From the IMG/VR virus record IMGVR_UViG_3300018875_000006, positions 1 to 63,484 of that record: 63,484 nt of DNA, one strand, 5' to 3'. Of this stretch, positions 1 to 43,128 are shown piece by piece. This DNA comes from a virus (Duplodnaviria > Caudoviricetes). Numbering within the stretch: position 1 is the stretch's first letter; every line of letters begins with the position of its first letter. A program made the translations under genes and the position numbers. Below the pieces are notes generated by a model, which searched no databases, was not told where the DNA came from, and saw only the letters and a list, made by a program, of their open reading frames with translations.

Positions 1-126
1 ACGTCTACACCGAATGGCGCGGCGGCACCTGCCGCGTGAAGTGGTGGACGGGCGAGTACCACGACGACGGCCGTAAGCGCTTCGAGTCCAAAGGCGGCTT
101 CACCGACGAGGACGAAGCCTACGACT
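1..126. repeat. Terminal direct repeat, copy 1 (circularisation/assembly overlap)
   Basis: 1-126 is identical to 63354-63479. Confidence 0.95.
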
Positions 127-24190: not shown

Positions 24191-25598
24191 CGGTCACCTC
24201 CGCAGCCGACGGCACCTCGCCCGCGCCGCCCAGCGCAGCCAGCCGCTTCATGAGCTGCCCGCCAGCCGCAGCGCCGGCGCTGCGGCGCCGTTCGGCCGCC
24301 ACCCGGCGCCGCTGGTCCTCAGACAGGCCCGCCATCTCCAGCACGACGTCGCCGTCGGCCGGCAGGATCCCGGCCTGAACCATCTTGACCGCGGCGTCCG
24401 TCTGGGCCGCGATCGTCGGGGTGGCAGGGTTCCGCCACACGCACTCGATGCGGCGTTCCTTCGGCGGCGGCTCGCCGTCCCGGAACCAGATCGCGAGCCG
24501 CATGGCGTCCCGATGCGTCGCCCCGAAGCGGCGGATCCGCCGTTCGGCCTTCTTCACCAGCATCGCCTCAGACGAGCGGATCGCGTCCGCCGAGGCCGGG
24601 TTGTCGCTGGTGTAACCCAGCATGTGCGGCGGCAGACCCAGCTGCGTCGCCATGATCCGCGCATACAGGTCAATGATCTTCGTCTGGCCGGACGGGTCAT
24701 GCGCCGCGAACTGGCCGACCGTCGGCACGTCACCGTTTTCGTCCCGTTCCAGCGCCAGCACGCGCCCGATGTACGTCTCCCACGCACTCTTGGCGTTGCC
24801 CTCAGCATCCTGGAAGGCGCTCTCCGACACACCCAGGATGTAGCGCTGCGGCGCCTGAAAGAACTCCGCGCCGACCTCGATGCCCATGAGCCGGCGGCAC
24901 GCCGCATCCGTGATCGACATGACCTCGGGCGTGATCTCCGACTTCCCGACCCGATCCGCGGTGCGCTGCCGGTTCGCCATCCGCAACACCGGCACGATCC
25001 CCAGATTGTGGATGTCACGGTCCAGGACTTCCCAGCCGCCATCGACCTCGGCCGCCAGGATCTTCTGGTTCGGGAGATCGAGCGTGACGATCCGGACCCC
25101 GTCCTCCACGGACTCGCGAAGCGCCGACGTCGCCATCCGAAGCCGCGCATCCCAGAACATCGTCATGTCCAGAGGACTTTCGAAGGTGATCAGCGGTGGG
25201 CCGTCACCCTCACCCGAGCCGACCGCCACGTACTCGCGGCCGTAGGTCAGCGCATCCAGATGCGCCAACGACGCCTCGTCGTACAAGTCGTTCGACTCAG
25301 CGATCTCCTCCAAGTCGGAGGCATCCGCGCCGTCCGCCCAGCGAAACGCCTCCAAGTCAAGACGCTGCTCCAGCGCCTCGACGCCGATACGCGGCCAGCC
25401 GATCACCGTGTGCAGGCCCTTGAGCTGCGGGGGAATCGCGATGCCGAGATCCCGCACAAGCTGCCCGCCGTTGAAGTACGCGTCCAGCAACTGCAGCTTG
25501 AAACGCTGCGACAGCAGATCCGAGCGCAGCGCCGTCAACAGGTCCAGCTCGTCCGGCGACAGCGACAGGAGCGGCAACTCGGGAATGACCGCAGTCAT
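24162..25598 (-). CDS. Portal protein (SPP1 gp6-like)
   Basis: GWPRIGVEAL, GKSEI, PQRY, NPASADAI motifs. Confidence 0.9.
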   Translation of the reverse strand: MTAVIPELPLLSLSPDELDLLTALRSDLLSQRFKLQLLDAYFNGGQLVRDLGIAIPPQLKGLHTVIGWPRIGVEALEQRLDLEAFRWADGADASDLEEIAESNDLYDEASLAHLDALTYGREYVAVGSGEGDGPPLITFESPLDMTMFWDARLRMATSALRESVEDGVRIVTLDLPNQKILAAEVDGGWEVLDRDIHNLGIVPVLRMANRQRTADRVGKSEITPEVMSITDAACRRLMGIEVGAEFFQAPQRYILGVSESAFQDAEGNAKSAWETYIGRVLALERDENGDVPTVGQFAAHDPSGQTKIIDLYARIMATQLGLPPHMLGYTSDNPASADAIRSSEAMLVKKAERRIRRFGATHRDAMRLAIWFRDGEPPPKERRIECVWRNPATPTIAAQTDAAVKMVQAGILPADGDVVLEMAGLSEDQRRRVAAERRRSAGAAAGGQLMKRLAALGGAGEVPSAAEVTGGDDGLGQQ

Positions 25599-27268
25599 CG
25601 CAGCACCACCACCCTCCCAGCGCGCGCCTTCTTCTTGCCGAGCCCCTTGGCCAGCGCGTCGACCCGGCACTGCCACGCGAGGACCGCAGCCACAGCGGCA
25701 TCGATCTTGCGGGGTGACTCCGGATGCTCCTTGGCGATCTGGATACCGGACCGCGACTCGCGCCGCCGCGCGTTCAGGATGTGCCTCGTCAGAACGCTCG
25801 AACCGTCATGCGTCAGCTCCCCGTCCACGACCGACGAGCGGAACTTTTCCAGCGCCCGCACAATCTGCACCGCCCGTCCACCCGTCATCCACCACTCGAT
25901 CGGGTGCTGCATCGACGACTTCACCTTGAGGCGACGCCCATGCTTCGCCTCAAGAGCCGCGATGTGCGACTCCCACTTCGCCGGGTCCGCGTACATGCCG
26001 ACCACTCGGTAGTTCCGGAAGGCGTCCTCCACTGCGGCCAGAACCTCGACAGTGGGCACCTGCCAGTCGGCGCCGAACGGGCCATCCGGCTGCTCCCAGC
26101 AGCCCAGCAGGAAGAGGTGCCCATCCGACACGCGGCAGCCCACCAGTGCGGTCGCATCCGTCACCCCGCGCGAGCGTCGTCGCGAGCCATCGAAACCGAG
26201 AACGATCTCATCCCGGTCCCCGACAACCTTCTCCGGCGCCGCCACAGCCGCCCACTCCGGTTGGCTGATCCAGCCGTCCGTGGCGTGTGTGACCTGGTTG
26301 AGGTAGTAGCGGCGGGCATCCTGGGGATCCGTATCCGGGTCCCAGTACTCCGCCAGCAGGCGCCGCAGATTCACCCAGCCACCGTTGCGGTCCGCCGAGT
26401 CGCCGTAAGCCACTGCCAGCCCGTCCAGCAGCGAGCGCTCCTCGGCCGGGTCCGTATCTGCCGGCGCCTCACGATGGTCGAAGAGAAGGCCCTCGTCGAG
26501 CTTCAGCTTGCCTTCCTGCTGCTTCTTCCACGCCTCGAACGACCTCTCGGCTACAGACTCCTCTCCCGGGATAAAGGCGTTCGGCGTCTCGACGGAGCAG
26601 CCGTTCACCTTGCCCAAGTTGCGGCGGATCGTGGCAGCCAACTTCCGACCTCCGTTGGAGGGGATCCACGACTCCGTCTGGTCCATCGCCGAGAACACCG
26701 GTCGGAACCCCTCTCGGCTCGTGCCCGAGCTGGTGACGAACTCGATGCGTCCGCGAGGAACGTTGACGAAGCTCTCCATCGGCTCAATGTCGTAGGCGTC
26801 GAGCACGGGCCCGCCGCGCGCCATCTCCAGCAGCGGATCCCATGTGTTCGCCGTCTGATCTTCCGATACAGCGACGATCTGCACCTTCGCCTTGAACCCC
26901 AGCGAGGTCCAAGGGCGCCCGACCGGCTCCCCGTCCGCATCCCAGCCGTCCGGAACAACATCCGCCAGAGCCTCAGCAAGACACAGAGCTGCGACCAGAG
27001 GCGACTTCCCCCAGCCCTTCGGGCGCGAGAGAACGGCCCGCCGAATCTTGCGTCCGTTACGCAGAGCGCGCCCCCCGACGGCCGGCCCCTTGAAGTCGGG
27101 GTCGATCGCGTACAACTGCAGGACGAACATCGCCTGCTCATCGGTGAACTCCAGCGGCTCACCAGCAGCCGGGCCGTCCGGAACGATCAGGTTGTCCGCG
27201 ATCCAGCCCAGCACCTGGTAGCCGAGAGTCGGCACCTCTCCGGGATAGGAAGGTCCGCGCCAAGGCAT
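25595..27268 (-). CDS. Terminase large subunit
   Basis: RPKGWGKS Walker A; GFDGS and KIDAAVA nuclease motifs. Confidence 0.93.
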   Translation of the reverse strand: MPWRGPSYPGEVPTLGYQVLGWIADNLIVPDGPAAGEPLEFTDEQAMFVLQLYAIDPDFKGPAVGGRALRNGRKIRRAVLSRPKGWGKSPLVAALCLAEALADVVPDGWDADGEPVGRPWTSLGFKAKVQIVAVSEDQTANTWDPLLEMARGGPVLDAYDIEPMESFVNVPRGRIEFVTSSGTSREGFRPVFSAMDQTESWIPSNGGRKLAATIRRNLGKVNGCSVETPNAFIPGEESVAERSFEAWKKQQEGKLKLDEGLLFDHREAPADTDPAEERSLLDGLAVAYGDSADRNGGWVNLRRLLAEYWDPDTDPQDARRYYLNQVTHATDGWISQPEWAAVAAPEKVVGDRDEIVLGFDGSRRRSRGVTDATALVGCRVSDGHLFLLGCWEQPDGPFGADWQVPTVEVLAAVEDAFRNYRVVGMYADPAKWESHIAALEAKHGRRLKVKSSMQHPIEWWMTGGRAVQIVRALEKFRSSVVDGELTHDGSSVLTRHILNARRRESRSGIQIAKEHPESPRKIDAAVAAVLAWQCRVDALAKGLGKKKARAGRVVVLR

Positions 27269-27272
27269 CGGA

Positions 27273-27761
27273 TCACCCCCCGGAAGACTTGCCCTCCTCG
27301 CCAGGCTTCACGACCCGCAGCTTCGCGTACCGGGCCTTCGCCGCCTCCGTACCCGACGACCCCTTACCGCCGTCAGCGTCATCAGCCTCCGCGAACGCCA
27401 TCCGAAGCCGCGCCCGGTCCTCCATCGTGGCGCCATGCTTCGCCACCCGAAGCCGCAGCTCCGCTGCCACCGACACGTCACCGCGCCAGAACCGGGCATG
27501 GATCAGCGCCGTGTCCAGCAGGAAGTCCCAGTCTGTGGATCCGAAGTGCTCCGCCTGCGGCGAGTCGATCCACATCTGCCACCACTCGCGCGTGCGCTCG
27601 GGCCAGATGAACTCGACCAGCTCGCCATCCTTCTCGATCCGGAAGTCGGGCAGCTCGGGCGCCTCGGCTCGCTCGAAGCGGAGGATCGTCTGCGGCTGCG
27701 CCTCCTTGTTCCGGCGCGCCCGGCGGGAGGGGTCCTTCGGGGCCGGCCCCACGCCTGCCAT
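27273..27761 (-). CDS. Terminase small subunit
   Basis: GPAPK...ELRLRVAKHGATMEDRARLRM; directly upstream of TerL. Confidence 0.85.
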   Translation of the reverse strand: MAGVGPAPKDPSRRARRNKEAQPQTILRFERAEAPELPDFRIEKDGELVEFIWPERTREWWQMWIDSPQAEHFGSTDWDFLLDTALIHARFWRGDVSVAAELRLRVAKHGATMEDRARLRMAFAEADDADGGKGSSGTEAAKARYAKLRVVKPGEEGKSSGG

Positions 27762-32685: not shown

Positions 32686-32988
32686 TCAGCTCCACTGCCA
32701 GGTCTGGTTGGCTCGCGCGGCGCGGTGCGCCGCAGAGGCGATGAGCGAGGCCAGTGTGCCCCATTCCGGGTCCATGGTTCGGTGCGCGGCGGCCTTGGTG
32801 AGGAGGTCCCCGATGCGGCCGGCTTGCGCGGGCGGGATGGCGACGGGGACGGCGAGCCGGCCGTCGAAGAGGTGCGCTACCTCCCGCCATTCGCTGCTGG
32901 TGAGGGCGTGGGCGAGGTGCTGGCCGAGGTTGGCGATGGTCGTCGCGGAGCGGGTGGAGGTGAGGCCGTGGCTGATGAAGATTCCCAA
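32686..32988 (-). CDS. Hypothetical protein
   Basis: GC3-rich ORF in minus-strand operon. Confidence 0.7.
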   Translation of the reverse strand: MGIFISHGLTSTRSATTIANLGQHLAHALTSSEWREVAHLFDGRLAVPVAIPPAQAGRIGDLLTKAAAHRTMDPEWGTLASLIASAAHRAARANQTWQWS

Positions 32989-32997
32989 GGAGGGCTC

Positions 32998-33462
32998 CTA
33001 GAGGTTGCGGCTGTCGGCGAGTTGGGCGGCGCGGTCGAGCTGAAGGAGGACGGGTGCGGCGCCGGGCTGGCGGGCGTTCCAGGCGGGGATGGTGTGGTCG
33101 CCGAAGTCGCGTTCGATCGACTCGAGCAGGAGCACGCACGCGTCGTCGGCCTGCCCGCGGGTGTGGGCGGTGCGGCGGATGGCGTGGATGGGGCAAACGG
33201 CGCCGGCCTCGTCGTAGGCGGCGTCGCGGCACCAGCCCGCGGTTTCGATGAGGACGCGGGCCCGGTGCAGCAGCTGGGCGACCGGGGTGGTGTAGGGGCT
33301 GGGGGTCGGCTGCGGGGTGTCAACGGGGATGCGGATGATGTCGGCCAGGTCGACGGGGGTGGTGTCGATGCGGGCGTCGATGGCGAGGGCGGCGAGGGTG
33401 AGGCGCTCCTCGAAGGTGAGCGGCTTCGGCGGGCTTGCCGCGGGGGCAGTGATCGTGATCAT
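32998..33462 (-). CDS. Hypothetical protein (DUF6197-like)
   Basis: LIETAGWCR...CPIHAIR...IPAWN motif. Confidence 0.72.
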   Translation of the reverse strand: MITITAPAASPPKPLTFEERLTLAALAIDARIDTTPVDLADIIRIPVDTPQPTPSPYTTPVAQLLHRARVLIETAGWCRDAAYDEAGAVCPIHAIRRTAHTRGQADDACVLLLESIERDFGDHTIPAWNARQPGAAPVLLQLDRAAQLADSRNL

Positions 33463-33547
33463 GTGGGGGTGCCCTTCTGCGCTGTCGTGGTCGGGTGGCG
33501 GGGCGCCCCTGGTCGCTTCCAGGCATTCGAGGGGCGCCCCGGGCCAG

Positions 33548-33715
33548 CTAGCCGCGCTGGCGGCGCATTTCGGCGGCGATATCGTCGTGCGTGGCTCCCG
33601 CTTCGAGAGCCCGGCGCATCGCCTCCATCGGGAGGCTCGGGTCGGTGAGCGCTGCGGGCCCGCCGTGCGCGAGAACTTCGCGGGCGGCTTCCTTCACTGC
33701 TTGCCGTCGATCCAT
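33548..33715 (-). CDS. Small hypothetical protein (55 aa, not in ORF track)
   Basis: GAAAGGA RBS; MDRRQAVKEAAREVLAHGGPAALTDP... Confidence 0.65.
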   Translation of the reverse strand: MDRRQAVKEAAREVLAHGGPAALTDPSLPMEAMRRALEAGATHDDIAAEMRRQRG

Positions 33716-33760
33716 CTCGGTTCCTTTCAGGTGACGGTCGTGTCTGGGTTGGGTTGGTGG

Positions 33761-34171
33761 TCAGACGCGCCAGCTTCCGAGGCGGCGGCGGGTGCGGGGG
33801 TTGGATCCGTCGGCGACCTGCTTCTCCAGGGCGCGCAGTTCGGCTTCGTCGAGGACGCCTTCGTAGTTGCCGCCGAGCGGCCCGGCGACCTGCGGGGCGG
33901 GGGCGGCGATGTTGCGGACGCCGCGCGGGGGCTGCTCGTAGACGGTGCCTTCCTGGGCGAGGAGCCCGGAGGCGGAGAGGTGGCTGGTCATCCACTCGCC
34001 GGTGATCGGTGACCGCCGGTCGAAGGTGTGGGCGGAGTAGAGCTGGCTGTCCTCGTAGGGGGCGATGTTCCGGGCGACGTTGCGGAGGGTGTAGACGGTC
34101 TTGCCCTTGCTGAGCCAGCGGTTGAGTTCCTTGGCGCCCTTCTTGGTGGGCTCCCAGCTGCGTCCGGCCAT
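33761..34171 (-). CDS. Hypothetical protein
   Basis: AGGAG RBS; GC3-rich ORF. Confidence 0.75.
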   Translation of the reverse strand: MAGRSWEPTKKGAKELNRWLSKGKTVYTLRNVARNIAPYEDSQLYSAHTFDRRSPITGEWMTSHLSASGLLAQEGTVYEQPPRGVRNIAAPAPQVAGPLGGNYEGVLDEAELRALEKQVADGSNPRTRRRLGSWRV

Positions 34172-34290
34172 GATCGGTCTCCTGTCTGGTGTGTGGTGAG
34201 GTTTGCCCAGCTTTGGGCGGTTCGGTAGGCGGTCGGCACCCAGTCGGTGCCTCTTTTGCGGTGGTTTGCGGCGTGGTCGAGGCGGGGTCT

Positions 34291-34386
34291 ACCCGGTCGG
34301 GCGACCGGGTGCGAGGCGGGCCCGACCGGGAGACATACCGGGTGATATCGGGGCGAGACCACGCACTGACCGGGTCTCGACCGGGT
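34291..34386. repeat. clt-like array of 8-mer repeats (GACCGGGT / ACCCGGTC)
   Basis: Copies at 34303, 34324 (GACCGGGA), 34336 (TACCGGGT), 34368, 34379, inverted copy at 34291; starts 9 bp past the translocase stop. Confidence 0.65.
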
Positions 34387-34394
34387 GATATGCC

Positions 34395-36455
34395 CTACTT
34401 TCCGAGAGCTTCGGCGAGCTGCTCGCGGGTGTAGCCGTTCGGGTTGGTCATGCCGTCGAGCGCGCCGAGCTTGCGCGTGCCACCCGCCTTGGCGTCCCGC
34501 AGGCGGGCCTGCAGAACAGGCTCGGTCAGCCCCTGGTAGCGGTCGGGCCGGTGCGCGATCAGCAGTTTCAGAAGCCGCGGGGTGCGGGCCCTGTCCACGT
34601 TGGCGGAGTCGAGGACGGCGAGGCAGTCGGCCAGCAGGTCCTTGTGCCCGGTTGCCGCCCGGTCGGCCTTGCCGTAGTGGGCGGCGAACCCGGTGAGGGT
34701 GCCGGCGTCAATGCGGAGCTGCCGGCCGCGCATGCAGATCTCTCGGAACTCGGGGATCGTCATGAAGTCGGTCTTGAGGGTGACGTGGCCTTCCTCGCCG
34801 CCCTGGTCGAGGACGACGACGCCCTTCTGCGAGTCGAGCAGCATGTGGGGCGCGGCACCTGCGGCGACCGCGTCGTCACCGAGGACCATCCGGGAGCTGG
34901 CGGCGCCCTTGACGCGGAAGCAGGCGCGCTTACGGCAGACGTCGCGCAGCATGGTCGGCACGCTGGTGGCGTCCGGGCGCTGGGTGATGAACAGGCCCAT
35001 GCCGCCCACGTACCGGCTGACGCGCACGAACCGGGCCATCGTCTCGACGAGGACGTCCTTTCCGTTCCGGCCGCGGTCCTTGGCGTCCGGGTCGTCCTCC
35101 GTCTTGATCTTCATCATGGCGGCGGCGTCCAGGAGCTCCTGCAACTCATCCACGATCAGCAGGGTCAGGCCGCGCTTCCACTCCTTCGCCAGCTCCGGGG
35201 TGAGCTTGCCCTCGGGGCAGCGCTCCGGATGCTCCTCCGACAGCTGCTCCAGGCGCTCACCGATCTGCTGCATGTCGGCGATCAGCTCGTTGAGCAGGCC
35301 GAGGAAGGCGAGGATCTTCTCCGGGGTGTTGCCCGCGACGTAAGAGTGGGCGAACTGCTTGGTCCCCACCCAGTCCGGGCCGGCCTTGCCGGTGGCGACG
35401 TGGACGGTCATGTACGGGTCGAGCGCAGCGGCGGCAGTCACCAGGCGGGCCAGGAAGGACTTGCCGTAGTCGGGCAGGCCGCCCAGCAGGATGGAGCACC
35501 ACACCAGCTCAAGAGCGTGCCGCGCTCCGCGGGCGTCGGTTCCCAGTGGCACCCCGTACTGCCAGAAGTCCAGGCGGTCCGCGGTGAGCAGCGGCGAGGG
35601 CACCGGCTTGGAGCCGTAGGGGTTGGGCTCGTTCGCCACCCACAGCACCACCTGCCCCTCGTGGCCGTCTTCGGAGGTGTCGGCACGCATCTCGATCTGG
35701 GACTTCTTGACCCGCATCGACGAGGCCAGTTCTTCGGCGCGGGAGGTGGCGGCGGAGGCCTTCATGCCGCGGGGCAGTTCGATCGTGGCGGTCCATCCGG
35801 GCCCGGCCGGCTGGATGATGCCGACGATGTGAGTCTCCTCGCGTTGCGCTTCGGTGATGATCCCGGCCTTGATGAGCGCCGTCACCAGGTCGGCTTCGCC
35901 GCGGATCTGGGCTGCGTCCCGCGGGGCGACCGGGTCCTCAGGCGACTCGACCGCGTCGTGCTGGTCGCGGTCGCGGCCGTGGAAGGCTCCGATCCCCCAG
36001 GTGCCGAGGAGCGCGAGCGCGTCGATCCACAGGCTGCCGGTGACCGCTCCGAAGCCGACTCCCCCGGCGACCGCCCCGGCGACCCCGGCGGTCTTGGTCG
36101 CGAAGGTCTTGCGGTGCTGCTTGTACTCCGCGCGGTAGCCGTCGGCGAGCTTCTTGAAGTGGGCCGCCTGGCCGATGTCGCCGGCCGCGTCGCGCACGGC
36201 CCGGTCGGCGTCGGCGATCAGCTGCGGGTAGTGGTCGTGGTAGCGCTCCAGCCAGCGGCGGCCGAGCTGTCGGTAGCCGCGGACGGTGTGCGGGAGCAGG
36301 GCCAGGCGGGCGACCCGGTTGGTGCGGGCTGCGACGGTGCGGGCGGACTCGACCCACGTCGGCCGGCCGGGCTCGGCCTGGTCCTTGTAGACGGGGGTGG
36401 CGGGCGGCGGGACGAGCGTCAGGGTGGGGCGCTCGTCGGGCAGAGGGGTAGCCAT
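34395..36455 (-). CDS. FtsK/SpoIIIE-family DNA translocase, TraB-like
   Basis: N-terminal TM pair, GLPDYGKS Walker A, LLIVDE Walker B, TQRP, C-terminal winged-helix-like domain. Confidence 0.85.
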   Translation of the reverse strand: MATPLPDERPTLTLVPPPATPVYKDQAEPGRPTWVESARTVAARTNRVARLALLPHTVRGYRQLGRRWLERYHDHYPQLIADADRAVRDAAGDIGQAAHFKKLADGYRAEYKQHRKTFATKTAGVAGAVAGGVGFGAVTGSLWIDALALLGTWGIGAFHGRDRDQHDAVESPEDPVAPRDAAQIRGEADLVTALIKAGIITEAQREETHIVGIIQPAGPGWTATIELPRGMKASAATSRAEELASSMRVKKSQIEMRADTSEDGHEGQVVLWVANEPNPYGSKPVPSPLLTADRLDFWQYGVPLGTDARGARHALELVWCSILLGGLPDYGKSFLARLVTAAAALDPYMTVHVATGKAGPDWVGTKQFAHSYVAGNTPEKILAFLGLLNELIADMQQIGERLEQLSEEHPERCPEGKLTPELAKEWKRGLTLLIVDELQELLDAAAMMKIKTEDDPDAKDRGRNGKDVLVETMARFVRVSRYVGGMGLFITQRPDATSVPTMLRDVCRKRACFRVKGAASSRMVLGDDAVAAGAAPHMLLDSQKGVVVLDQGGEEGHVTLKTDFMTIPEFREICMRGRQLRIDAGTLTGFAAHYGKADRAATGHKDLLADCLAVLDSANVDRARTPRLLKLLIAHRPDRYQGLTEPVLQARLRDAKAGGTRKLGALDGMTNPNGYTREQLAEALGK

Positions 36456-36461
36456 GGCGGG

Positions 36462-37811
36462 TCAGTCCTCCTGCTTCTTGGCTGCGTTCAGGCGGCGCTT
36501 CGTCTCGCCGTGGAGGCGGCGCGCGACAGGGTGGAATCGGGGTGTGTCGCCGGGCTTCCGGACGGGCGGAGTGGGCTTGTACGAGGACCGTCGTGCGGGC
36601 GCCTTAACTTGGATCGCACGCTGGGCGTTCATGGTCTTGCCGAGGGTGTTCACGGGGGCGCCAGTAAGGGCTGCTTCGACGCGCTTCTCGGCGGAGCGGC
36701 GGGCGGTGATGGACTCGATCGTCTCGCCCGGGTCGCAGCCCTTGATGTTGCGGTAGGCGCGCGTCCACACGGCGTCGTCGTCGGGGGTCGATCCGACCGC
36801 CGCAGCGATCTTCACGGCCTCCTTCCACACGTCCTCGAACTCCCGCTGACGCTCCGCCGCGAGCCGCTGCCGTTCTGCCTCGGCAGCCTTCTTCGTGGCG
36901 GCTTCCTCGGCGGCGCGCCGCTTCTCCTCCGCAGCCCTCTCCTTGGCTGCCGCAGCCTCGGCCTTGCGCTGCGCGCGGCGCTCCCGCCAGGTCGGCTTGC
37001 CGTCCCGCTTGCGGATGCGGCCGTGCTCGTGGAGGTCCCACATACCGGGGCCAGCCACCGAGGCGAGGGCAGTGCCGAAGGCGGTCGCCGCGTCGAACGC
37101 TTCGAGGCCGTGGACGATGTTGATCGTGGCGGCGGTGAGGGCTCCCGCCCATGCAACGAGCCGGTAGTGCCAGTGGGCACGGCCCGCCGTGACCGCGGCC
37201 GCCGCGCCAACGAGGGCGACGAGCGCGATCACCTCAATGAACACGGGGGCGACGAGCAGGTACTCGGCGTTCGGGTCATAGAAGGCGGCCATCTGGACGG
37301 GCAGGGCCACGCCGGCGCACAGGGCGTAGAAGGCCATCGCGACGCGACGCCAGCGCGTGCTGGACTTCTCGACCGCCTCGCTCTTGCTGGCCTCGGCTTG
37401 CTGCTCCTCCTCGGCCTTACGGGCGGCGTCGGCGCGGGCCCGGTCGGCTTCGTCGCGGCGCCGGTTGTGCTCGGCGATCCGCGCCTCGGAAGCGGCGGCC
37501 TCCTCGGCGGCCTTGCGCTCGGCACGGTCGTTGGCGAGGCGCAGCTTGCGCGCCTCCTCCTCCGCCTTGACGCGGATCGCGTCCGCCTGGGCCTCGGCCT
37601 TGAGCCTCTGCTCCTCTGCCTCGGCCCACGCCTTGGCGCGGATCGCTTCGGCCTTGGCCTGAGCGACGAGGTCGCTGTCGATCTGCGGCGTACTGGCCAG
37701 GGAGGACGGTGCGGTCTCCGCGGTGGGGGTGGCCTCTATGGGCTGCCAGTCCCCCAGCACGGGCGGGGCGGGCGGCCTCTCGTGGCCGTTCACCTGCGGG
37801 CTGGCAGTCAT
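36462..37811 (-). CDS. SpdB2/DUF2637-like multi-TM coiled-coil protein
   Basis: Coiled coil, four TM helices, coiled coil, basic tail; directly upstream of translocase. Confidence 0.72.
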   Translation of the reverse strand: MTASPQVNGHERPPAPPVLGDWQPIEATPTAETAPSSLASTPQIDSDLVAQAKAEAIRAKAWAEAEEQRLKAEAQADAIRVKAEEEARKLRLANDRAERKAAEEAAASEARIAEHNRRRDEADRARADAARKAEEEQQAEASKSEAVEKSSTRWRRVAMAFYALCAGVALPVQMAAFYDPNAEYLLVAPVFIEVIALVALVGAAAAVTAGRAHWHYRLVAWAGALTAATINIVHGLEAFDAATAFGTALASVAGPGMWDLHEHGRIRKRDGKPTWRERRAQRKAEAAAAKERAAEEKRRAAEEAATKKAAEAERQRLAAERQREFEDVWKEAVKIAAAVGSTPDDDAVWTRAYRNIKGCDPGETIESITARRSAEKRVEAALTGAPVNTLGKTMNAQRAIQVKAPARRSSYKPTPPVRKPGDTPRFHPVARRLHGETKRRLNAAKKQED

Positions 37812-37900
37812 GGCTGATCAGTCCTCTCTGCTCTAGCTGGCGGTGCCTTGGGGGCGGCGGCTGTCGTCGGTGCGGGCGCCGTGCGCGCGGTCGGCGGCCA

Positions 37901-38110
37901 TCAGGCGGCGCTCGCGGGCGCCGGGGCGGGGGCGGGCTGGTGTCGCCACCAGGCGATGAGGCCGGCGGCCAGCCAGACGGGCACGGGGATGAGGCTGAGG
38001 ATCACGGCGGCCCCGGCGGCGGCGAGCTTGAGCGGTGTCGCGGCGGCCGGCCACAGGCCGACGGTGATCAGGAAGGCTGCGAGCAGCAGTCAGCGGATGA
38101 GACGGATCAT
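37901..38110 (-). pseudogene. Small membrane protein with in-frame TGA at codon 7
   Basis: GAGG RBS; MIRLIR*LLLAAFLITVGLWPAAA...IAWWRHQPAPAPAPASAA. Confidence 0.6.
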
Positions 38111-38201
38111 GGCGACCTCTTCGGGGGGCGGATTCGGATGGGGGTGGTGCTGGCCGGATCTCCAGGGCGCACGCGCTGTGTCGTGCGCCGAGGGCTACCG
38201 G

Positions 38202-38714
38202 TCAGCGAGGGCCGTGACCGCGGGCGAACTCGGCGGCGGCGACCAGCAGGTCCCGCACCTCGCCCCAGGCGCGGCCCCGCTTCGACACCCACGCGCCGTG
38301 GGAGACGAACGGCGCCCCGGTGTACGCGCGGAGCAGCGCGCCCATCACGCGGTCGGCGGCGGCCGCCGTGTCCTGGTCGCCGGCCGAGCCCTGCACCCGG
38401 CCCATCGCGACCGACAGGGTCAGCGAGCCCCGGTCCGCCGACCAGTCCCGCGCGACCCGCAGCAGGCTGAGCAGCATGGCCTTCACCGACATCGACTCGT
38501 CGGCCTCCGGCATCTCCGGGTCCGGGTCGCCGAACGTGCGGGACCAGCCGCGCTTCTCCAGAAGCTCGCGGGCCGCGTCCAGGTGCTCGGCGACCTCCTC
38601 GCCGTACACCGGCTCGCCGGAGTATCCGACCCAGAAGCCGGGCTCGGCCGCGACGATCTCGGCGGCGGCAGCCATCACGGCCGGCTCAGTCAGCGAACGG
38701 ATTGCGGTGGTCAT
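38202..38714 (-). CDS. Hypothetical protein (DUF6197-like)
   Basis: HLDAARELLEKRGWSR...W...GRAWGEVRDLL. Confidence 0.7.
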   Translation of the reverse strand: MTTAIRSLTEPAVMAAAAEIVAAEPGFWVGYSGEPVYGEEVAEHLDAARELLEKRGWSRTFGDPDPEMPEADESMSVKAMLLSLLRVARDWSADRGSLTLSVAMGRVQGSAGDQDTAAAADRVMGALLRAYTGAPFVSHGAWVSKRGRAWGEVRDLLVAAAEFARGHGPR

Positions 38715-38732
38715 GGGGTGTCCTCTCAAAGC

Positions 38733-38805
38733 GGGTGGATGGGGTGGTCTGGTGCGCGCCCCGGGCCGGATCCGATCCGGCACCATCGCGGCTGGGCCGG
38801 GGCTG
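38733..38805 (-). repeat. 73-bp intergenic repeat copy A (tRNA-half-like fold)
   Basis: One mismatch to 38989-39061. Confidence 0.85.
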
Positions 38806-38811
38806 AGTGGG

Positions 38812-38973
38812 TCAGCGGCCGTTCTTCTCGTGCTTGCTGGCCGCCTCCTCGGCGACGGAGCGGCTGCCGTAGTCGCCGCCGCGGGCCCCGCAGGTGCAGG
38901 TCCACGTGTGCGAGTAGCGGCCGTAGCCACGACCGTGACTGGAGACGTAGGCGCGGTGGGTGGGGGCGGGCAT
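38812..38973 (-). CDS. Small Cys/His protein (mobile-element-transfer-like)
   Basis: GAAGGAG RBS; WTCTCG...AEEAASKH. Confidence 0.65.
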   Translation of the reverse strand: MPAPTHRAYVSSHGRGYGRYSHTWTCTCGARGGDYGSRSVAEEAASKHEKNGR

Positions 38974-38988
38974 GGCGGGCTCCTTCAG

Positions 38989-39061
38989 GGGTGGATGAGG
39001 TGGTCTGGTGCGCGCCCCGGGCCGGATCCGATCCGGCACCATCGCGGCTGGGCCGGGGCTG
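38989..39061 (-). repeat. 73-bp intergenic repeat copy B (tRNA-half-like fold)
   Basis: One mismatch to 38733-38805. Confidence 0.85.
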
Positions 39062-39108
39062 GGTGCCGGGCGCGGCTGGGGGATGTACCGCGCCCGGCGG
39101 TCGGTGGG

Positions 39109-39318
39109 TCAGTGCTTGGGCCGCCAGGTGCCGTTCTTCGCGGCGTTCAGCTCGTCCAGGTGCTCGTCGACGGCTTCGCCCATGCGGGCGGCGAGCCGGT
39201 GCTGGCCGGCCTCCTGCAGGTCGCGCTGGGCTCCGCGGGCCGACGCGACGTCGGCCTTGATCTCGTCCACGAGCTGCTCGGTGGAGCTGGGCCGGGAGAA
39301 GTGACGGGATGCGGACAT
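39109..39318 (-). CDS. Hypothetical protein
   Basis: GAAGGA RBS; helical 69 aa. Confidence 0.7.
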   Translation of the reverse strand: MSASRHFSRPSSTEQLVDEIKADVASARGAQRDLQEAGQHRLAARMGEAVDEHLDELNAAKNGTWRPKH

Positions 39319-39331
39319 GGGTTTCCTTCGG

Positions 39332-39712
39332 TTAGCGGTTGACGACGTCCTTGTGGACGTCGCGGTGGGTGACGGTCACGGTGTGGCCTCGGCGGCGGAG
39401 GCGGCGGGCGAGCCTGTCGGCGACGACGACGGACCGGTGGCGGCCTCCCGCACAGCCGGAGCCGATGACGATCCGCTCGGCGGACGGGCCGGCGGCGTAT
39501 GCCTGGACCTGTCGGGTGGTGGCTCGCAGCAGCCGCCGGATACCGCGGGTGCGAAGGACCTTTCGCTGCACAAGCGGGTCCCGGCCGGTCAGCTCCCGCA
39601 TCCGCGGGTCGACGTGCGGGTCCCGGAACGCGCGCCGCAAGTCGAGCACCACGTCCGCTTGCGGGGCGGCGCCGTGCAGGAACCCGAACGAGACGATCTC
39701 GACGACGGCCAT
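39332..39712 (-). CDS. Stand-alone RapZ C-terminal-domain protein
   Basis: IVSFGFLHG, DLR...DP, GCAGGRHRSV, HRDV motifs. Confidence 0.85.
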   Translation of the reverse strand: MAVVEIVSFGFLHGAAPQADVVLDLRRAFRDPHVDPRMRELTGRDPLVQRKVLRTRGIRRLLRATTRQVQAYAAGPSAERIVIGSGCAGGRHRSVVVADRLARRLRRRGHTVTVTHRDVHKDVVNR

Positions 39713-39945
39713 CAGGCGGCGGCCGGCAGGTCGAAGCCGTCGAGTTCGGCGAGCAGGTCGTCGTCGCCCTGGGCGGCGAGCCGGATGAGGACGGCGCGGG
39801 TCTCGTCGCCGGACTGGCGGGCCCGGGCGTAGTCGGTGAACAGGTCGCTGATCGACAGGACGGAGGCGTCGGCGACGGTGATGCGGGCGCGGGCCTGACC
39901 GTGGTCGGTGGCGGCGTGATCGGCGGAGAACAGGAACGGAGACAT
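39712..39945 (-). CDS. Hypothetical protein
   Basis: TGATG-coupled to RapZ-CTD gene. Confidence 0.7.
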   Translation of the reverse strand: MSPFLFSADHAATDHGQARARITVADASVLSISDLFTDYARARQSGDETRAVLIRLAAQGDDDLLAELDGFDLPAAA

Positions 39946-39984
39946 GGCGGTGCCCTTTCGGGTGCGGTGGGAGGGGGTGGGTGG

Positions 39985-40377
39985 TCAGGCGGTGGGGCGG
40001 GGCAGGGCGCGGCACTTTTCGGCGTGGGCCTGGGCATGCTTGCGGGCAGCCAGCCGGTGCTCCTCGGTGAAGTCGCCGTGATCGCAGTCGAAGACCAGGT
40101 CGCGCATCGAGACTTCGGCGAGCGGGTCGGTGCAGCCGAACCCGGAGCAGACCACGACGAAGCGGTGAAGGACGCTGACGCCGTGGTCGTGGGGTCCGAC
40201 GTCGATGCGCTGCTCTGCTGCTACCTCGGCGCCCACGAGGTTCCCGAACAAGCCGATCCGGAGTGCTCCGGAGCGGTTCTCTTGCCAGCCTTCACGGCGG
40301 TACTCGTTGCGTAGGTCGTTGACCTTGTCGTTCACCGTTGCGGCGTCGGAGCTGACGGTCTGGGTGGAAGAAGGCAT
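39985..40377 (-). CDS. Hypothetical Zn-binding protein
   Basis: CSGFGC...AQAHAEKCRALPRP. Confidence 0.72.
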   Translation of the reverse strand: MPSSTQTVSSDAATVNDKVNDLRNEYRREGWQENRSGALRIGLFGNLVGAEVAAEQRIDVGPHDHGVSVLHRFVVVCSGFGCTDPLAEVSMRDLVFDCDHGDFTEEHRLAARKHAQAHAEKCRALPRPTA

Positions 40378-40488
40378 GGCGGATCTCCTCGGTTGGTCAT
40401 GCCGGGATGGCGTGGGATGGGAAGAAGGGGGAGCCGCGGGGCGGGTGGCGGGGGATGGAACCGCCCCGCGGCGGATCTGGGGGTGCGG

Positions 40489-40656
40489 CTACCTGCAGGC
40501 GTCGCAGATGCCGCCGTCCCAGTCGTCCAGCCACGCACCGCAGTAGGCGCACTGGCCGGAGCCGAAGAAGCAGACGAACGGGCTGATGCCCTGCGGGTGC
40601 GGGCGAGGTGGCCTCGTGGGGAGGGGGTCTTTCACGCGCTCGTGCTCGGCGCTCAC
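40489..40656 (-). CDS. Small Zn-ribbon protein (55 aa, not in ORF track)
   Basis: CAYCG...CDAC; GTGA overlap. Confidence 0.55.
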   Translation of the reverse strand: MSAEHERVKDPLPTRPPRPHPQGISPFVCFFGSGQCAYCGAWLDDWDGGICDACR

Positions 40657-40880
40657 CGCTGCTCACCCCGCTCGGCGTCCAGCGCGGCAAGCAGGTTGTG
40701 CAGGACGTAGTGGAGGCCGCAGGCGGCGCGGATCATCTCGTCCCGGTCGTGGATGTTCGCCCGGGCCTTCTCGTCGACGACCTTGCGGGCGTGGGCGATG
40801 GCCTGCTCCAGCGTCGGAACGACCTGTGTGTCGCTGCCCGGGTCATGGAGCGGCCTGTAGGAGATGCCATCCACGGTCAC
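40653..40880 (-). CDS. Hypothetical protein
   Basis: VTVDGISYRP...NIHDRDEMIRAACGL. Confidence 0.65.
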   Translation of the reverse strand: MTVDGISYRPLHDPGSDTQVVPTLEQAIAHARKVVDEKARANIHDRDEMIRAACGLHYVLHNLLAALDAERGEQR

Positions 40881-40980
40881 CACTTCCTGACGGCGAGCGT
40901 GCGGCGGCGGGCGGCCGGCTCCTGCGGCAACGGCGGCAGATCCGGCGTCGGCTCGGGCTGCGGCGCGGGGGCCGGGGCGC

Positions 40981-41493
40981 TCACGCGGCACCTCCTCGGA
41001 CCCGGCGCAGCGCCTCCTCCACGTCCGGGTCGGAGTCGCCAGCCGCGTTGTGCAGGCGAGCCGTGCGGGAGAGCGAGCGGAGCGAGGACGCCAGGGTGAT
41101 CAGGTCGTCAGCGAGCTTGTCCGCCATGTCCGGGGTGAGATGCGATCCCTCGTCACCGGAGGCGTCCCCGATGGCGATGTGCGCGGCGCGGAACTGCGGG
41201 TCCGTCGCGGTCGGGTCGGACTCGACCCAGGCGTGCATCTGCACGGGATAGGCGCCGTAGCCGAAGGTCGGCACGTGCACGCTGGCAGTGTCGCCGCGGT
41301 GCATGACGTCCTCGACGGCGCGCACCGGCTCGTCGAGGTGGTCCTCAACACACCAAAATGGATCTTCGATCCAGGCGACGGTGCTGGTCGCTCCGGTGCC
41401 GATCCGCGCCGGGACCAGGCGGTGACCCGGCTTGATCGCAGGGAAGGGGTGCACGGTACCCAGGGGTGCCTGGGTAGACTGCTGGTCAGCCAT
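40981..41493 (-). CDS. Hypothetical protein (DUF6907-like)
   Basis: PFWCVEDH...H motif; GAAGGG RBS. Confidence 0.72.
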   Translation of the reverse strand: MADQQSTQAPLGTVHPFPAIKPGHRLVPARIGTGATSTVAWIEDPFWCVEDHLDEPVRAVEDVMHRGDTASVHVPTFGYGAYPVQMHAWVESDPTATDPQFRAAHIAIGDASGDEGSHLTPDMADKLADDLITLASSLRSLSRTARLHNAAGDSDPDVEEALRRVRGGAA

Positions 41494-41623
41494 GAGGGGA
41501 CCCTTCAGAAGTTCCTCGTGGTTAGGGTCGGCCTGCGAGTGGAGTCGCAGCGTCGGCCCGCTTTGTTTTGTGGTGCTGGTGGAGCAGCACGAATGTCCCA
41601 TCTGGACCGGTGGAGCGGTCCGA

Positions 41624-41671
41624 GTGGCACTCCACTAACGTAGCGCCTTCTCTAGACCGTGGCAATCCACT
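41624..41671. promoter_or_regulatory. Paired operator-like sites in divergent promoter
   Basis: GTGGCACTCCACT at 41624 and GTGGCAATCCACT at 41659. Confidence 0.6.
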
Positions 41672-41687
41672 GTGCGACGATTCGGTC

Positions 41688-41897
41688 ATGCCAGCCGGAG
41701 TCCACCTGAGAACCGCACGCACATTCCGCCCCGATCCCGACGTGTACGAGCGGGCAAAGGAGGCGGTGAAAGCCGTGGACTCGGACATGAACACGCACAT
41801 CAACGCGTTCCTGCTCTGGCTGGTGCACGACACGGACGAGCTGCCCGAGCGCCCGCCGAAACGTGAGCGCGGCGAGGCCCGGCCGAACGGCTCATGA
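41688..41897 (+). CDS. Ribbon-helix-helix-like regulator
   Basis: RTFRPDPDVYERAKEAV...MNTHINAFLLWL. Confidence 0.7.
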   Translation: MPAGVHLRTARTFRPDPDVYERAKEAVKAVDSDMNTHINAFLLWLVHDTDELPERPPKRERGEARPNGS

Positions 41898-41958
41898 AGC
41901 GCTGAAGTCATGGCGTCGAGTCAAGCGGCGGCACGACCCAGCCGCCATGGCCACCCAG

Positions 41959-41996
41959 TGCAGCGCCGATGCAGCAGGAGTGCAGCCGCCGTGCAG
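41959..41996 (+). promoter_or_regulatory. Four TGCAG repeats at 11-bp spacing
   Basis: TGCAG at 41959, 41970, 41981, 41992, upstream of the HTH-Nudix gene. Confidence 0.55.
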
Positions 41997-42025
41997 TCCG
42001 CCCGAATCGATCCGGCAAAGGGGCG

Positions 42026-42658
42026 ATGATGGACGTCGTCGAGACGTGGAGCGGGAGTCTGGCGACCGCGTTACAGGCCGCCCTGCGGATGACGAACGAG
42101 CAGTTCGCCGAGCATCTCGACGTGAGCGTGCGGACGGTCGCCGGCTGGCACGCCGAGCCTGACACCGTCCCCCGCAACGACACCCAGCAACTGCTCGATA
42201 CCGCCTACGAGAGGGCATCCGCCTCGGTGCAACGCCGCTTCAGTCTCTTGGCCCGCCCCAAGCCGAACGCCATGGAGGCGCAGGCCTTGCGCGTGGCCAT
42301 CGCCGTCGTCATCCGCGATGACGAGGTGCTACTCGTCTGCCGGCGCGGGTCGGACTCGCTCAGCTGGCAGTTCCCGGCCGGCGTGGTGAAGCCGGGCGCC
42401 TCCCCCGCGGTCGTGGCGGTCGAGGAGACACACGCGGAGACCGGCGTCCGCTGCACGGTCCGCGCGCCACTGGGGTCCCGGGTCCATCCGATCACGGGCG
42501 TGGTCGCCGAGTACCTGGCATGTGACTACCTGATGGGCGACGCCACGAACCGCGACCCGCTGGAGAACGCCGACGTGGCCTGGGTGCCCCGGTCGGCTCT
42601 GACCCGCTTCATCCCCAAGCAGTCCATCTATCCGCCGATCTTGGAGGCGCTGGCATGA
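42026..42658 (+). CDS. HTH-Nudix hydrolase fusion
   Basis: LRMTNEQFAEHLDVSVRTVAGW HTH; WQFPAG...AVEETHAETG degenerate Nudix box; TTA at codon 16. Confidence 0.85.
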   Translation: MMDVVETWSGSLATALQAALRMTNEQFAEHLDVSVRTVAGWHAEPDTVPRNDTQQLLDTAYERASASVQRRFSLLARPKPNAMEAQALRVAIAVVIRDDEVLLVCRRGSDSLSWQFPAGVVKPGASPAVVAVEETHAETGVRCTVRAPLGSRVHPITGVVAEYLACDYLMGDATNRDPLENADVAWVPRSALTRFIPKQSIYPPILEALA

Positions 42659-43059
42659 CCGAGACGACCACGAAGCCGGGGATCTCCGCGGCGATCATCA
42701 CGAGCGAGGGCCGTGTGCTTATGGTCCGTCGCCGGGTGAAGGAGGGCGAGCTGTCGTGGCAGTTCCCGGCCGGCGGCATCGAGCCGGGCGAGACGCCGGA
42801 GGAGGCCGCGGTGCGGGAGACATTGGAGGAGACCGGCGTCAAGGTCGAGGCCGAACGGCTGATCGGCCAGCGCATCCACCCGAAGACCGGCCGCGAGATG
42901 AGCTACACCGCCTGCCGGGTCATCGACGGGGAGGCGCACGTCGCCGACGCCGACGAGCTGGACGCCGTCGCCTGGGTGTCACTGGAGGAGATCCCCGATT
43001 ACGTGCCCTACGGGCTGTTCGAGCCCGTGCAGAGGTATTTGACTGAGGTGATCCCGTAG
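42655..43059 (+). CDS. Nudix hydrolase
   Basis: GGIEPGETPEEAAVRETLEETG canonical Nudix box. Confidence 0.92.
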   Translation: MTETTTKPGISAAIITSEGRVLMVRRRVKEGELSWQFPAGGIEPGETPEEAAVRETLEETGVKVEAERLIGQRIHPKTGREMSYTACRVIDGEAHVADADELDAVAWVSLEEIPDYVPYGLFEPVQRYLTEVIP

Positions 43060-43091: not shown

Positions 43092-43128
43092 CGCGAAGGG
43101 CCGGACGGTTCCCGTCCGGCCCTTCGCG
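43092..43128. terminator. Bidirectional terminator hairpin
   Basis: 17-bp perfect stem CGCGAAGGGCCGGACGG-TTC-CCGTCCGGCCCTTCGCG between convergent genes. Confidence 0.8.

Follow-up and report, generated by a model that had tools for sequence, protein, structure and literature searches.

The Cassette and Its Setting

The DNA analysed here, referred to throughout as the window, is the entire virus record IMGVR_UViG_3300018875_000006 of IMG/VR, a single contig of 63,484 bases with a G+C content of 65-74%, and our subject is a cassette of plasmid type within it: a gene for a TraB-family, FtsK-like translocase of double-stranded DNA (dsDNA), a gene for an SpdB2-like membrane protein just upstream, and an array of short repeats directly downstream that resembles the plasmid transfer site clt (cis-acting locus of transfer). 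Bases 1-126 of the window are identical to bases 63354-63479 in direct orientation, with the final five bases differing, which looks like the overlap left by circular assembly and would make the record a complete genome of about 63.4 kb. An integrase-like frame, open at its 5' side and running past the 5' end of the window, spans the circular junction, and the provirus record G006 carries a terminal homologue of the integrase-like gene (48% identity).

Genes were called by third-position G+C content (GC3). Besides the integrase-like gene the integration and control genes include a second tyrosine recombinase and a helix-turn-helix (HTH) regulator, and among the early genes family scans find an antirepressor, Dam and Dcm methylases, a DnaC/IstB-like ATPase, a Gp3-like protein, the beta clamp of DNA polymerase III and a protein resembling PAPS (3'-phosphoadenosine-5'-phosphosulfate) reductase. 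The late module matches PHROG families for portal (phrog_104), protease, major head, major tail and further tail proteins and endolysin, with a tape measure protein of 1,429 amino acids (aa); the head, tail and lysis genes listed in a first-pass annotation, made from the sequence without database searches, are in this way matched from TerS (PF25673) and TerL (phrog_9) through the portal to the endolysin. A complete siphovirus-type set for a temperate phage (integrase, TerS/TerL, portal, protease, capsid, tail, tape measure and lysis) thus lies on one replicon, and from the content of the integration, early and late genes we therefore take the window to be a temperate siphophage-type genome. 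It has no tRNA genes. A search of sequencing runs points to a biocrust metagenome as the probable source of the assembly: one run contains all of the sampled words, and a second run from the same study, which is no independent support, contains a fraction of 0.73 of them.

Between the early and the packaging genes, and on the minus strand, is the cassette, which in the order of transcription holds a DUF6907 gene, several small open reading frames (ORFs), a gene with a RapZ C-terminal-like domain, a DUF6197-domain gene, the SpdB2-like gene, the translocase, a gene for a 136-aa protein, a further DUF6197 gene and a DUF7739 gene (Table 1); a 69-aa ORF and the two Nudix genes are transcribed divergently from it on the plus strand. 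The minus-strand operon with an SpdB2-like gene and a translocase that had been proposed for this region is thus present, although it does not end at the translocase as first described, the last three genes continuing towards the packaging genes. The 8-mer array directly behind the translocase and the two Nudix genes beside the block were likewise recovered, whereas the supposed ribbon-helix-helix regulator, presumably the 69-aa ORF, matched no Pfam family at E<=0.05.

Table 1. Positions of the cassette and of the other mapped features of the window
Feature	Position	Strand	Evidence and remarks
Integrase-like gene	36..1271	+	Weak match to Phage_int_SAM_3, E 0.0022, below cut-off
Second tyrosine recombinase	4711-5634		Family scan
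Packaging and virion module	From TerS/TerL (25595..27761) down to ~7882	-	PHROG matches
TerL	25595-27268	-	phrog_9, E 4.6e-75
TerS	27273-27761	-	PF25673, E 1.8e-34
DUF7739 gene	32686..32988	-	PF24881, E 8.9e-31; downstream end of cassette
DUF6197 gene	32998..33462	-	PF19698, E 1.3e-17; kept in 5/5 full-length relatives
Conserved 136-aa gene	33761..34171	-	GC3 0.93; first gene past the repeat array
clt-like array	34291..34387	-	Six CCCGGT cores, five direct (gene strand) and one inverted; consensus ~nACCCGGTC
TraB-family FtsK-like dsDNA translocase	34395..36455	-	686 aa; phrog_1358 (FtsK/SpoIIIE-like), E 1.3e-20
SpdB2-like membrane protein	36462..37811	-	449 aa; ends 6 bp ahead of the translocase start
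Second DUF6197-domain gene	38202..38930	-	PF19698, E 1.3e-8, residues 110-234
RapZ C-terminal-like domain gene	39332..40015	-	PF22740, E 3.4e-29, domain at residues 105-221
DUF6907 gene	40981..41601	-	PF21848, E 1.4e-18; first clear minus-strand gene past the divergent region
69-aa ORF	41688..41897	+	Translation only
HTH-like/Nudix fusion	41969..42658	+	NUDIX PF00293, E 1.6e-13, residues 107-219
Nudix hydrolase gene	42655..43059	+	PF00293, E 6.8e-26; Pif-like by domain only
Perfect 17-bp inverted repeat (hairpin)	43092..43128	+	100% complementary, 3-nt loop; closes the Nudix unit

The Translocase and Its SpdB2-Like Partner

The translocase consists of N-terminal helices with a putative hydrophobic anchor, a motor domain and a C-terminal domain that is winged-helix-like by topology. 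A Walker A sequence, GLPDYGKS, lies at residues 326-333 and a Walker B sequence, LLIVDELQ, at residues 432-439, and G331, K332, S333 and E437 are invariant across 37 sequences. The one hydrophobic stretch, at about residues 118-160, reaches a hydropathy peak of 1.52 in a part of the protein where the structure model is of low confidence. With the AlphaFold model as a whole (pLDDT, the predicted local distance difference test score, of 74) the top matches in the Protein Data Bank (PDB) are FtsK motor domains (E 2e-13), followed by TcpA, a coupling protein of conjugation, and EccC; a sequence search of the PDB gave chance matches only. Ratios of nonsynonymous to synonymous substitution (dN/dS) of 0.23-0.34 against seven relatives reflect purifying selection on the gene.

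By sequence the protein resembles TraB of Streptomyces plasmids. BLASTP aligns it with pSVH1 TraB at 29% identity over 369 aa (E 8e-30), the identity to pSG5 TraB is 27% over 498 residues, and a tblastn search of plasmids returned 76 records at E<=1e-3, 61 of them from Streptomyces, with pSVH1 (NC_007431.1) and pSG5 (NC_008792.1) included. The same search of 50,697 phage records gave none at E<=1e-5, the single match being a Bacillus phage at E 2. In a tree of motor domains with 38 rows the translocase, its homologues and all seven plasmid TraB proteins sampled (pSVH1, pSG5, pSTS2, SLP2 and three others) form one clade with support of 99/98, outside of which fall chromosomal FtsK, three EccC proteins (domains D1-D3), two FtsK-like proteins of ~540-580 aa and Tra of the pZL12 type; the three EccC 'D3' rows, which duplicate D2 and are 19% filled, serve as outgroup rows only. 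A second tree of 43 rows agrees on the placement, with the reservation for both trees that sampling is small and branches are long. The first-pass annotation had staked its case on a position among the TraB proteins and apart from FtsK and EccC, and that is where both trees put the protein. Phage-borne and plasmid-borne proteins interleave in the second tree, in which the protein of phage G414 is sister to TraB of a 29-kb plasmid (100/100); its row PHAGE_L182 stands for a pSVH1-like element beside a prophage and is not phage-borne.

The SpdB2-like protein has a charged, coiled-coil-like N-terminus rich in Ala, Glu, Lys and Arg, followed by three strong and one weaker hydrophobic segments. Its best evidence of kinship is a BLASTP alignment with pSVH1 SpdB2 (26% over 312 aa, E 8e-7), with the pSG5 homologue at E 1e-5, and no record with a match was found among the 50,697 phage genomes. 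The original description as an SpdB2-like coiled-coil protein with four transmembrane segments fits as to position and build, less so in that the fourth segment is weak and that no Pfam family, DUF2637 included, was matched. In 11 of the 15 rows compared, the protein encoded just upstream of TraB is 370-525 aa long, starts with a charged region and has hydrophobic segments, these proteins falling into two or three unrelated sequence types. According to the available text of one study, SpdB2 forms pores and is needed for spreading and TraB binds clt (PMC4447253).

The Repeat Array and Its Co-Variation with the C-Terminal Domain

The array begins 8 bases past the stop codon of the translocase and packs its six CCCGGT cores into 97 bp of the 223-bp gap that separates the translocase from the 136-aa gene. 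Four of the nine exact copies of ACCCGGTC in the window sit here, and the array is one of only three places in the window with at least five copies of a 7-mer per 116-bp frame. It is the local cluster alone that is significant, since over the whole genome CMCCCGGT is not enriched (10 observed, 11.1 expected) and the nine copies of ACCCGGTC, against 5.3 expected, are reached in 9 of 100 shuffles. In pSVH1 the 100 bp that follow traB contain the plasmid's 8-mer four times in direct orientation and once inverted, and clt regions are described by Thoma et al., in the portion available, as direct 8-bp repeats recognised by the matching TraB (PMC4447253).

Arrays of CCCGGTC are kept in relatives with 75-85% identical translocases, whereas a 52%-identical relative has CTGCTA repeats and three relatives at 47-50% have CCCCGGAC; plasmids and AICE-like elements (AICE, actinomycete integrative and conjugative element) each have a motif of their own. 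Among the relatives compared a change of motif is always accompanied by a change in the C-terminal ~70-100 residues of the translocase, and this co-variation lends indirect support to the predicted binding of DNA by the C-terminal domain. All 19 cassettes in portal-related records (see below) have a repeat array after the TraB-like gene, each with its own motif, and at least four copies of a 7-mer occur within 180 bp in 18 of the 19, as against 3.8% of background frames; the background is made up of 180-bp frames in six related genomes, of which 0.5% reach five copies. For L010 and L012 the flank had been read from a misplaced stop codon, and L008 was reread.

A second motif, CTGACCTGC(A/G), is found ~120-150 bp past the TraB stop codon at L032, L033, L058, L001, L016, L173 and L181-L189. 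It is shared by many plasmid, AICE-like and phage cassettes regardless of their 8-mer, the window type having CAAACCACCGCAAA, and may be a conserved promoter or a site for the downstream genes.

Conservation in Related Prophages

Close homologues of the translocase were found on nine IMG/VR contigs and at six genome loci, among which two pairs are duplicates (L010 and L012 are one contig, L009 and L011 are near-identical) and were each counted once. Five related records, four of them proviruses and one with terminal repeats, were compared over their whole length. All five keep TraB (77-84% identity), the 136-aa gene and DUF6197 in otherwise mosaic surroundings, and four have the virion module of the window in the same order, the fifth having another one. 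CheckV completeness is 84-100% for the five, and terminal repeats at assembly are seen in the window and in three relatives (G008, G416 and G427). Homologues of the virion genes lie downstream on the same strand in 13 of 16 distinct full-length relatives, the other three being cut by a contig end or by the sequence limit, and the module is conserved at 42-98% aa identity. The relatives of the window are integrated proviruses.

The same conclusion is reached when one starts from the portal rather than from the translocase. At 58 IMG/VR loci there is a portal 71-90% identical to that of the window, and when the portal-related records of at least 45 kb were searched, 19 of 24 matched the translocase at E<=1e-5 (17 of 20 among those at least 90% complete). 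In 17 of the 19 the match is on the strand of the portal and 5.7-12 kb upstream of it, distances being taken from match positions; the G421 match fits this spacing only if its linear record is circularly permuted, and that in G433 is of a different kind, as discussed below. The cassette of the window is thus no one-off and no nested AICE; it occupies a fixed slot just upstream of the packaging genes. A nested AICE was considered for the window itself and rejected, there being no att-like repeat, integrase or replication gene that brackets the block, where the longest flanking repeats are short and imperfect, and no AICE-type Rep was found among the window ORFs scanned. What had been put forward as a phage/AICE hybrid is accordingly a cassette of plasmid type inside a phage genome, conserved in related prophages; instead of a single hybrid, an entire lineage of prophages has the trait. 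The analysis confirms what was first observed and finds it far beyond the window.

Relation to Cassettes of Plasmids and AICEs

A sample of 401 Streptomyces species genomes contained a translocase match at E<=1e-60 in 26. Non-phage homologues of ~750 aa share 62-69% identity with the window protein over residues 177-684 and have a different N-terminus. In the five contexts of such homologues none of the window's phage genes occurs within 20 kb, and homologues of the SpdB2-like, 136-aa and DUF7739 proteins are present; CCCGGTC arrays are strong in two of the five and weaker in the others. The one context that was scanned with Pfam (G103) has a GntR/UTRA regulator, a DUF3987/DnaB-N replication protein, two integrases and a TrwC relaxase, a gene content that we would class as AICE-like.

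The reverse combination is seen in G420, G423 and G431 (L185-L187), where the N-terminal ~170 residues of the window type (65-68% identity) are joined to a very different motor and C-terminus and where the arrays differ too (CTGATCA/CTGCTCA), and G035:C24 also joins a window-type N-terminal ~170 residues to unrelated motor and C-terminal domains. Since both N-termini and motors are swapped, the cassette has a modular look, and the join near residue 170-177 suggests domain shuffling at this point. The order of genes is itself plasmid-like, namely an SpdB2/DUF2637 gene, TraB, a gap of ~200 bp and small genes, as in pSVH1, pSG5 and four further plasmids.

Interpretation and Alternatives

In our reading the cassette is a working TraB-clt-Spd system that moves the phage's own dsDNA genome from cell to cell, a route that would exist besides virions. 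We give this a probability of about 0.6, and roughly two thirds of that goes to true transfer between mycelia. Binding and translocation of DNA, assembly of a ring, passage from one mycelium to another, the part played by the Nudix genes and the making of virions are steps that we infer, and they might fit together as follows. The window would represent, in circular form, a temperate siphophage of Streptomyces that belongs to a common, uncultured lineage of prophages; in this lineage the fixed slot upstream of the packaging genes would hold a dsDNA transfer cassette of plasmid/AICE type, expressed, we suppose, from the excised or replicating circle. The TraB-like protein would sit in the membrane through its N-terminal anchor and assemble as a ring, as do FtsK and pSVH1 TraB, its C-terminal domain binding the 8-mer array directly behind its own gene and its motor pumping the double-stranded phage genome through the hyphal wall or the septal cross-walls. 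Onward spread of the DNA through the mycelium could be aided by the SpdB2-like protein and the small conserved genes, and the Nudix pair may limit redundant transfer among lysogens in the manner of pSAM2 Pif. With DNA pumped and spread in addition to the release of virions, two routes would thus be open to the phage, one by virions and one by direct transfer of DNA from cell to cell. The idea first put forward, that the excised prophage circle could move between hyphae without virions, has partial support in these findings.

A number of results weigh against this reading and have to be set beside it. The translocase is unmatched by Pfam FtsK_SpoIIIE (PF01580) even at E<=10, and reaches only 28.4 bits (E 5.8e-7) with the NCBIfam equivalog plasmid_TraB (NF041214), the cut-off of which is 800; in genome G001 the FtsK_SpoIIIE model detects FtsK, EccC-like genes and others but not the window orthologue at E<=0.001. 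The model of the last 100 residues (pLDDT 85.8) runs helix, strand, three helices and hairpin, a topology in line with the winged HTH first assigned to it, but the best Foldseek match is at E 0.17, the hits listed being mostly winged-helix domains and the FtsK gamma domain not among them; a winged helix is therefore plausible for the modelled domain, a significant fold match being what the earlier assignment does not have. The sequence of the SpdB2-like gene is poorly conserved among relatives, no GntR-type TraR/Kor regulator was found among the ~50 ORFs scanned, five of the 24 portal-related records gave no match to the translocase query, and a run search listed no RNA run containing the element. 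Finally, the closest cultured phage is distant, with a best portal identity below 40% among the 50,697 phage records, and the case for virion formation is therefore one of gene content.

The alternative that survives best, though we consider it unlikely, is that the cassette serves spread only, carrying phage DNA across the septal cross-walls within one mycelium after injection or induction and never into a separate recipient, so that a wider zone is infected or lysogenised and the prophage gets into spores. A role in spreading phage DNA has indeed been suggested for SpdB2 homologues on the actinophages phiC31 and VWB, and the spd genes of pSVH1 act in spreading rather than in primary transfer (Thoma et al., PMC4447253, available text); moreover, a phage already has virions with which to reach new hosts. 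The same text states, however, that deletion of traB abolished transfer of pSVH1 (PMC4447253), and what is kept here is a full TraB with its array, not an Spd protein alone. The closest non-phage homologues (62-69%) belong to elements without detected phage genes, some with the same repeat, and pZL12 is reported, in what could be consulted of the source, to transfer conjugally by means of its major tra gene and two neighbours (PMC3583192).

Less probable again is a different job altogether, be it partitioning of phage or prophage DNA between compartments or spores, arrest of host growth (kil/pock), or interference with plasmids and AICEs that use the same motif. FtsK-like genes of unknown role are noted for lytic Streptomyces phages (PMC11536984; bioRxiv 10.1101/2024.02.16.580700; both as far as available), unregulated traB is described as probably toxic in the accessible text of PMC4447253, and the non-phage relatives do share the CCCGGTC motif. 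Against these uses speak the location of the array in cis right behind its gene, an arrangement known from self-transmissible plasmids, its change in step with the C-terminal domain, and the retention of both the SpdB2-like partner and the small genes of the cassette; the translocase searches described above, moreover, detect no homologues among the FtsK-like genes of lytic phages.

That the cassette serves an independent AICE or integrated plasmid lying within or beside the prophage is very improbable for the window, real as this arrangement is in G433. There the translocase match lies 46 kb from the portal, at the end of a 75-kb provirus record, in a separate pSVH1-like element beside the prophage whose SpdB3, Spd79, SpdB2, orf108, TraB and spd198 (L192/L193, 1.9-7.4 kb) are 84-90% identical in aa sequence to those of pSVH1; G433 is a tandem of an AICE and a prophage of the window's lineage, a further point to be held against the transfer reading, and such tandems do occur, accretion of AICEs at one site being reported (PMC9513070). 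In the window, however, the block is flanked by neither integrase nor replication gene nor att-like direct repeat, phage genes occupy both sides of a contig that closes on itself, and chromosomal prophages as well as 17 of the 19 matching portal-related records have the cassette at the same place between early and packaging genes. We attach as little weight to a defective prophage, in effect a large AICE or particle-producing island that yields no infectious particles and moves only by its translocase, for which the distance to cultured phages and the nature of the virion evidence could be cited, since the module from TerS to endolysin is full, collinear, intact and conserved in relatives that appear complete or nearly so by CheckV, with terminal repeats in four of the genomes.

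A wider proposal can be made that we advance tentatively and at somewhat less than even odds: that the large and as yet uncultured lineage of 60-65 kb temperate Streptomyces phages consists of dual-mode elements, with virions on the one hand and AICE-like conjugation and spread on the other, whose interchangeable TraB-plus-clt cassettes are swapped with plasmids and AICEs, each cassette having its own DNA specificity and the N-terminal domain of the lineage being placed on a varying motor and reader.

Other Genes and Features of the Window

Homologues of the 136-aa protein, for which no match was found in Pfam, PHROG or NCBIfam, occur in all five full relatives (37-74% identity) and in four of the five non-phage contexts (G103, G394, G296 and G012; 36-50%), and DUF7739 homologues (39-72%) adjoin TraB in prophages and non-phage relatives alike. 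The RapZ C-terminal-like gene, which likely starts near 39712, also matches NF003828 at E 7.5e-25, below the cut-off of that model. The true start of the DUF6197-domain gene at 38202..38930 is probably internal, the N-terminal part of its translation looking non-coding. A 77-bp direct duplication (38733-38809 and 38989-39065, 97% identity) with the palindrome GCCGGATCCGATCCGGC in each copy lies within the cassette and may represent a regulatory site repeated ahead of two small genes. A scan for promoters and terminators over 31.5-44 kb gave results at chance level (no promoters, and five terminator-like sites with 3.3 expected), and a DNA-level search of the cassette block against plasmids gave no match.

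The Nudix pair recurs next to TraB in related prophages. The HTH-like N-terminus of the first Nudix protein was recognised by eye in the translation; an HTH plus Nudix build is also found on a Streptomyces integrative and conjugative element, where it is likened to cI-type repressors (Choufa et al., PMC9513070, in the text available). The Nudix gene pif of pSAM2 is described as conferring transfer immunity that prevents redundant transfer (PMC2440964).

Elsewhere in the window, 54648-55616 encodes a Gp3-like 'recombination directionality factor' domain (PF18897, E 5e-42), and despite this domain the recombinases among the ORFs scanned are of the tyrosine type only, with no serine integrase. 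Between the major capsid and head-tail genes a gene at 20764-21786 has a match to phrog_26352 (E 5e-171) and a weak one to a PHROG of glycosyltransferases; the corresponding slot of plasmid NZ_CP108705.1 has an annotated glycosyltransferase family 4 gene. Residues 534-1400 of the tape measure protein (gene at 13356-17645) also match the 'endolysin' PHROG phrog_971 at E 1.7e-108, and this part may be a cell-wall-degrading domain. Two long minus-strand frames overlap within 48986-51324, one (48986-51307) matched by relatives and the other (50359-51324) by an IstB/DnaA-like domain, and may represent two genes with a spurious upstream extension or else a frameshift. The strongest k-mer cluster of the window, at 51472-51606 between the DnaC/IstB-like gene and the cytosine methylase, is made up of tandem 22/34-bp repeats on the palindrome GGTCCGGTGACCGGACC, which may be an origin of iteron type or a set of operators. 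A DNA-level search of the virion region against phages returned four tiny matches only.

Significance

Should the cassette work as proposed, a temperate phage could reach new hyphae without adsorption or injection, thereby escaping receptor loss and other surface barriers, and could fill a multicellular host from a single entry. The boundary between prophage and conjugative element would be blurred in the main antibiotic-producing genus, and prophages could then be among the drivers of the TraB-dependent transfer of chromosomal DNA that is discussed for AICEs (PMC11571958, as far as its text is available). If the dual-mode proposal is true as well, integrated copies could mobilise flanking chromosomal DNA in cis, and mutual mobilisation could take place between prophages and AICEs that share a motif. 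For the question of how TraB reads DNA, the paired C-terminal domains and repeat motifs offer a natural series.

Comparison with Known Systems

With chromosomal FtsK/SpoIIIE and EccC the translocase has in common the RecA-like motor fold, FtsK motor domains being the best structural match and EccC a lower one; it differs in belonging to the TraB clade and in escaping the Pfam FtsK_SpoIIIE model. The FtsK-like proteins of lytic Streptomyces phages and the SpdB2 homologues of phiC31 and VWB are likewise phage-borne and belong to the same broad superfamilies as the window proteins, whereas no pair of TraB and array is described for the lytic phages in the available text of the two reports (PMC11536984; bioRxiv 10.1101/2024.02.16.580700).

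A close likeness is to pSVH1 and pSG5, whose FtsK-like translocase belongs to the same clade and is immediately preceded by an SpdB2-like gene, and which have direct 8-mers with an inverted copy after the stop codon, the array of the window and the 8-mer of pSVH1 having the common core ACCCGG. In contrast to the 12-kb plasmid pSVH1 the replicon is here a 63-kb phage, and the GntR regulator TraR, the orf108/RRQRL gene and the plasmid rep of pSVH1/pSG5 were not found in the window. Nor do the translocases correspond throughout, since relative to pSVH1 TraB the N-terminal 175 residues are unrelated, the C-terminal domain gives no BLAST alignment, and the plasmid_TraB cut-off is failed. AICEs of the pSAM2, SLP1 and pMEA300 type resemble the window in that its nearest non-phage homologues are found in an AICE-like setting and in the Nudix gene on the element, as with pSAM2 pif. 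AICEs are defined by Int, Rep (RepSA, RepAM or Prim-Pol) and Tra modules, according to the portion of PMC3218068 consulted, and so carry a Rep of their own and no virion genes, unlike the window with its full virion module. The translocase of the window, moreover, has a different N-terminal domain, that of the phage lineage, from the AICE-like homologues of ~750 aa, and the G103 element has in addition its TrwC relaxase.

A precedent is pZL12 (phage ZL12, GQ919031), which is reportedly, from Zhong et al. 2010, a Streptomyces plasmid-phage with a lytic cycle that forms virions. In GQ919031 an FtsK-like gene (71c), gene 72c and a membrane protein gene (73c) lie just upstream of the packaging genes, so that a translocase cassette occupies the same slot as in the window. 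Unlike the relatives of the window, which are integrated, pZL12 is maintained as a plasmid and has ParA/ParB, neither of which was found among the window ORFs scanned. Tra of the pZL12 type has no BLAST similarity to the TraB of the window, falls outside the TraB clade and has no repeat array after 71c, the window proteins have no match to 71c-73c, and the virion genes of the two are unrelated. The two types meet on the 88-kb Streptomyces plasmid NZ_CP108705.1, which has a tra cassette of the pZL12 type (59-88%) in the same slot together with a virion module of the window type (portal 75%, capsid 70% and major tail 72% identical). We rejected the description of this plasmid as pZL12-like throughout, which is true of the tra region and some other genes, the virion module being that of the window type; across a wider group the slot is therefore taken up by some kind of translocase cassette. 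The full-text literature searched, with subscription journals and supplements lying outside it, yielded pZL12 and the remark on SpdB2 and no account of integrated prophages with TraB-clt cassettes. The principle is already known from pZL12, and the present case is of interest for its breadth and for the natural series of matched protein and motif pairs.

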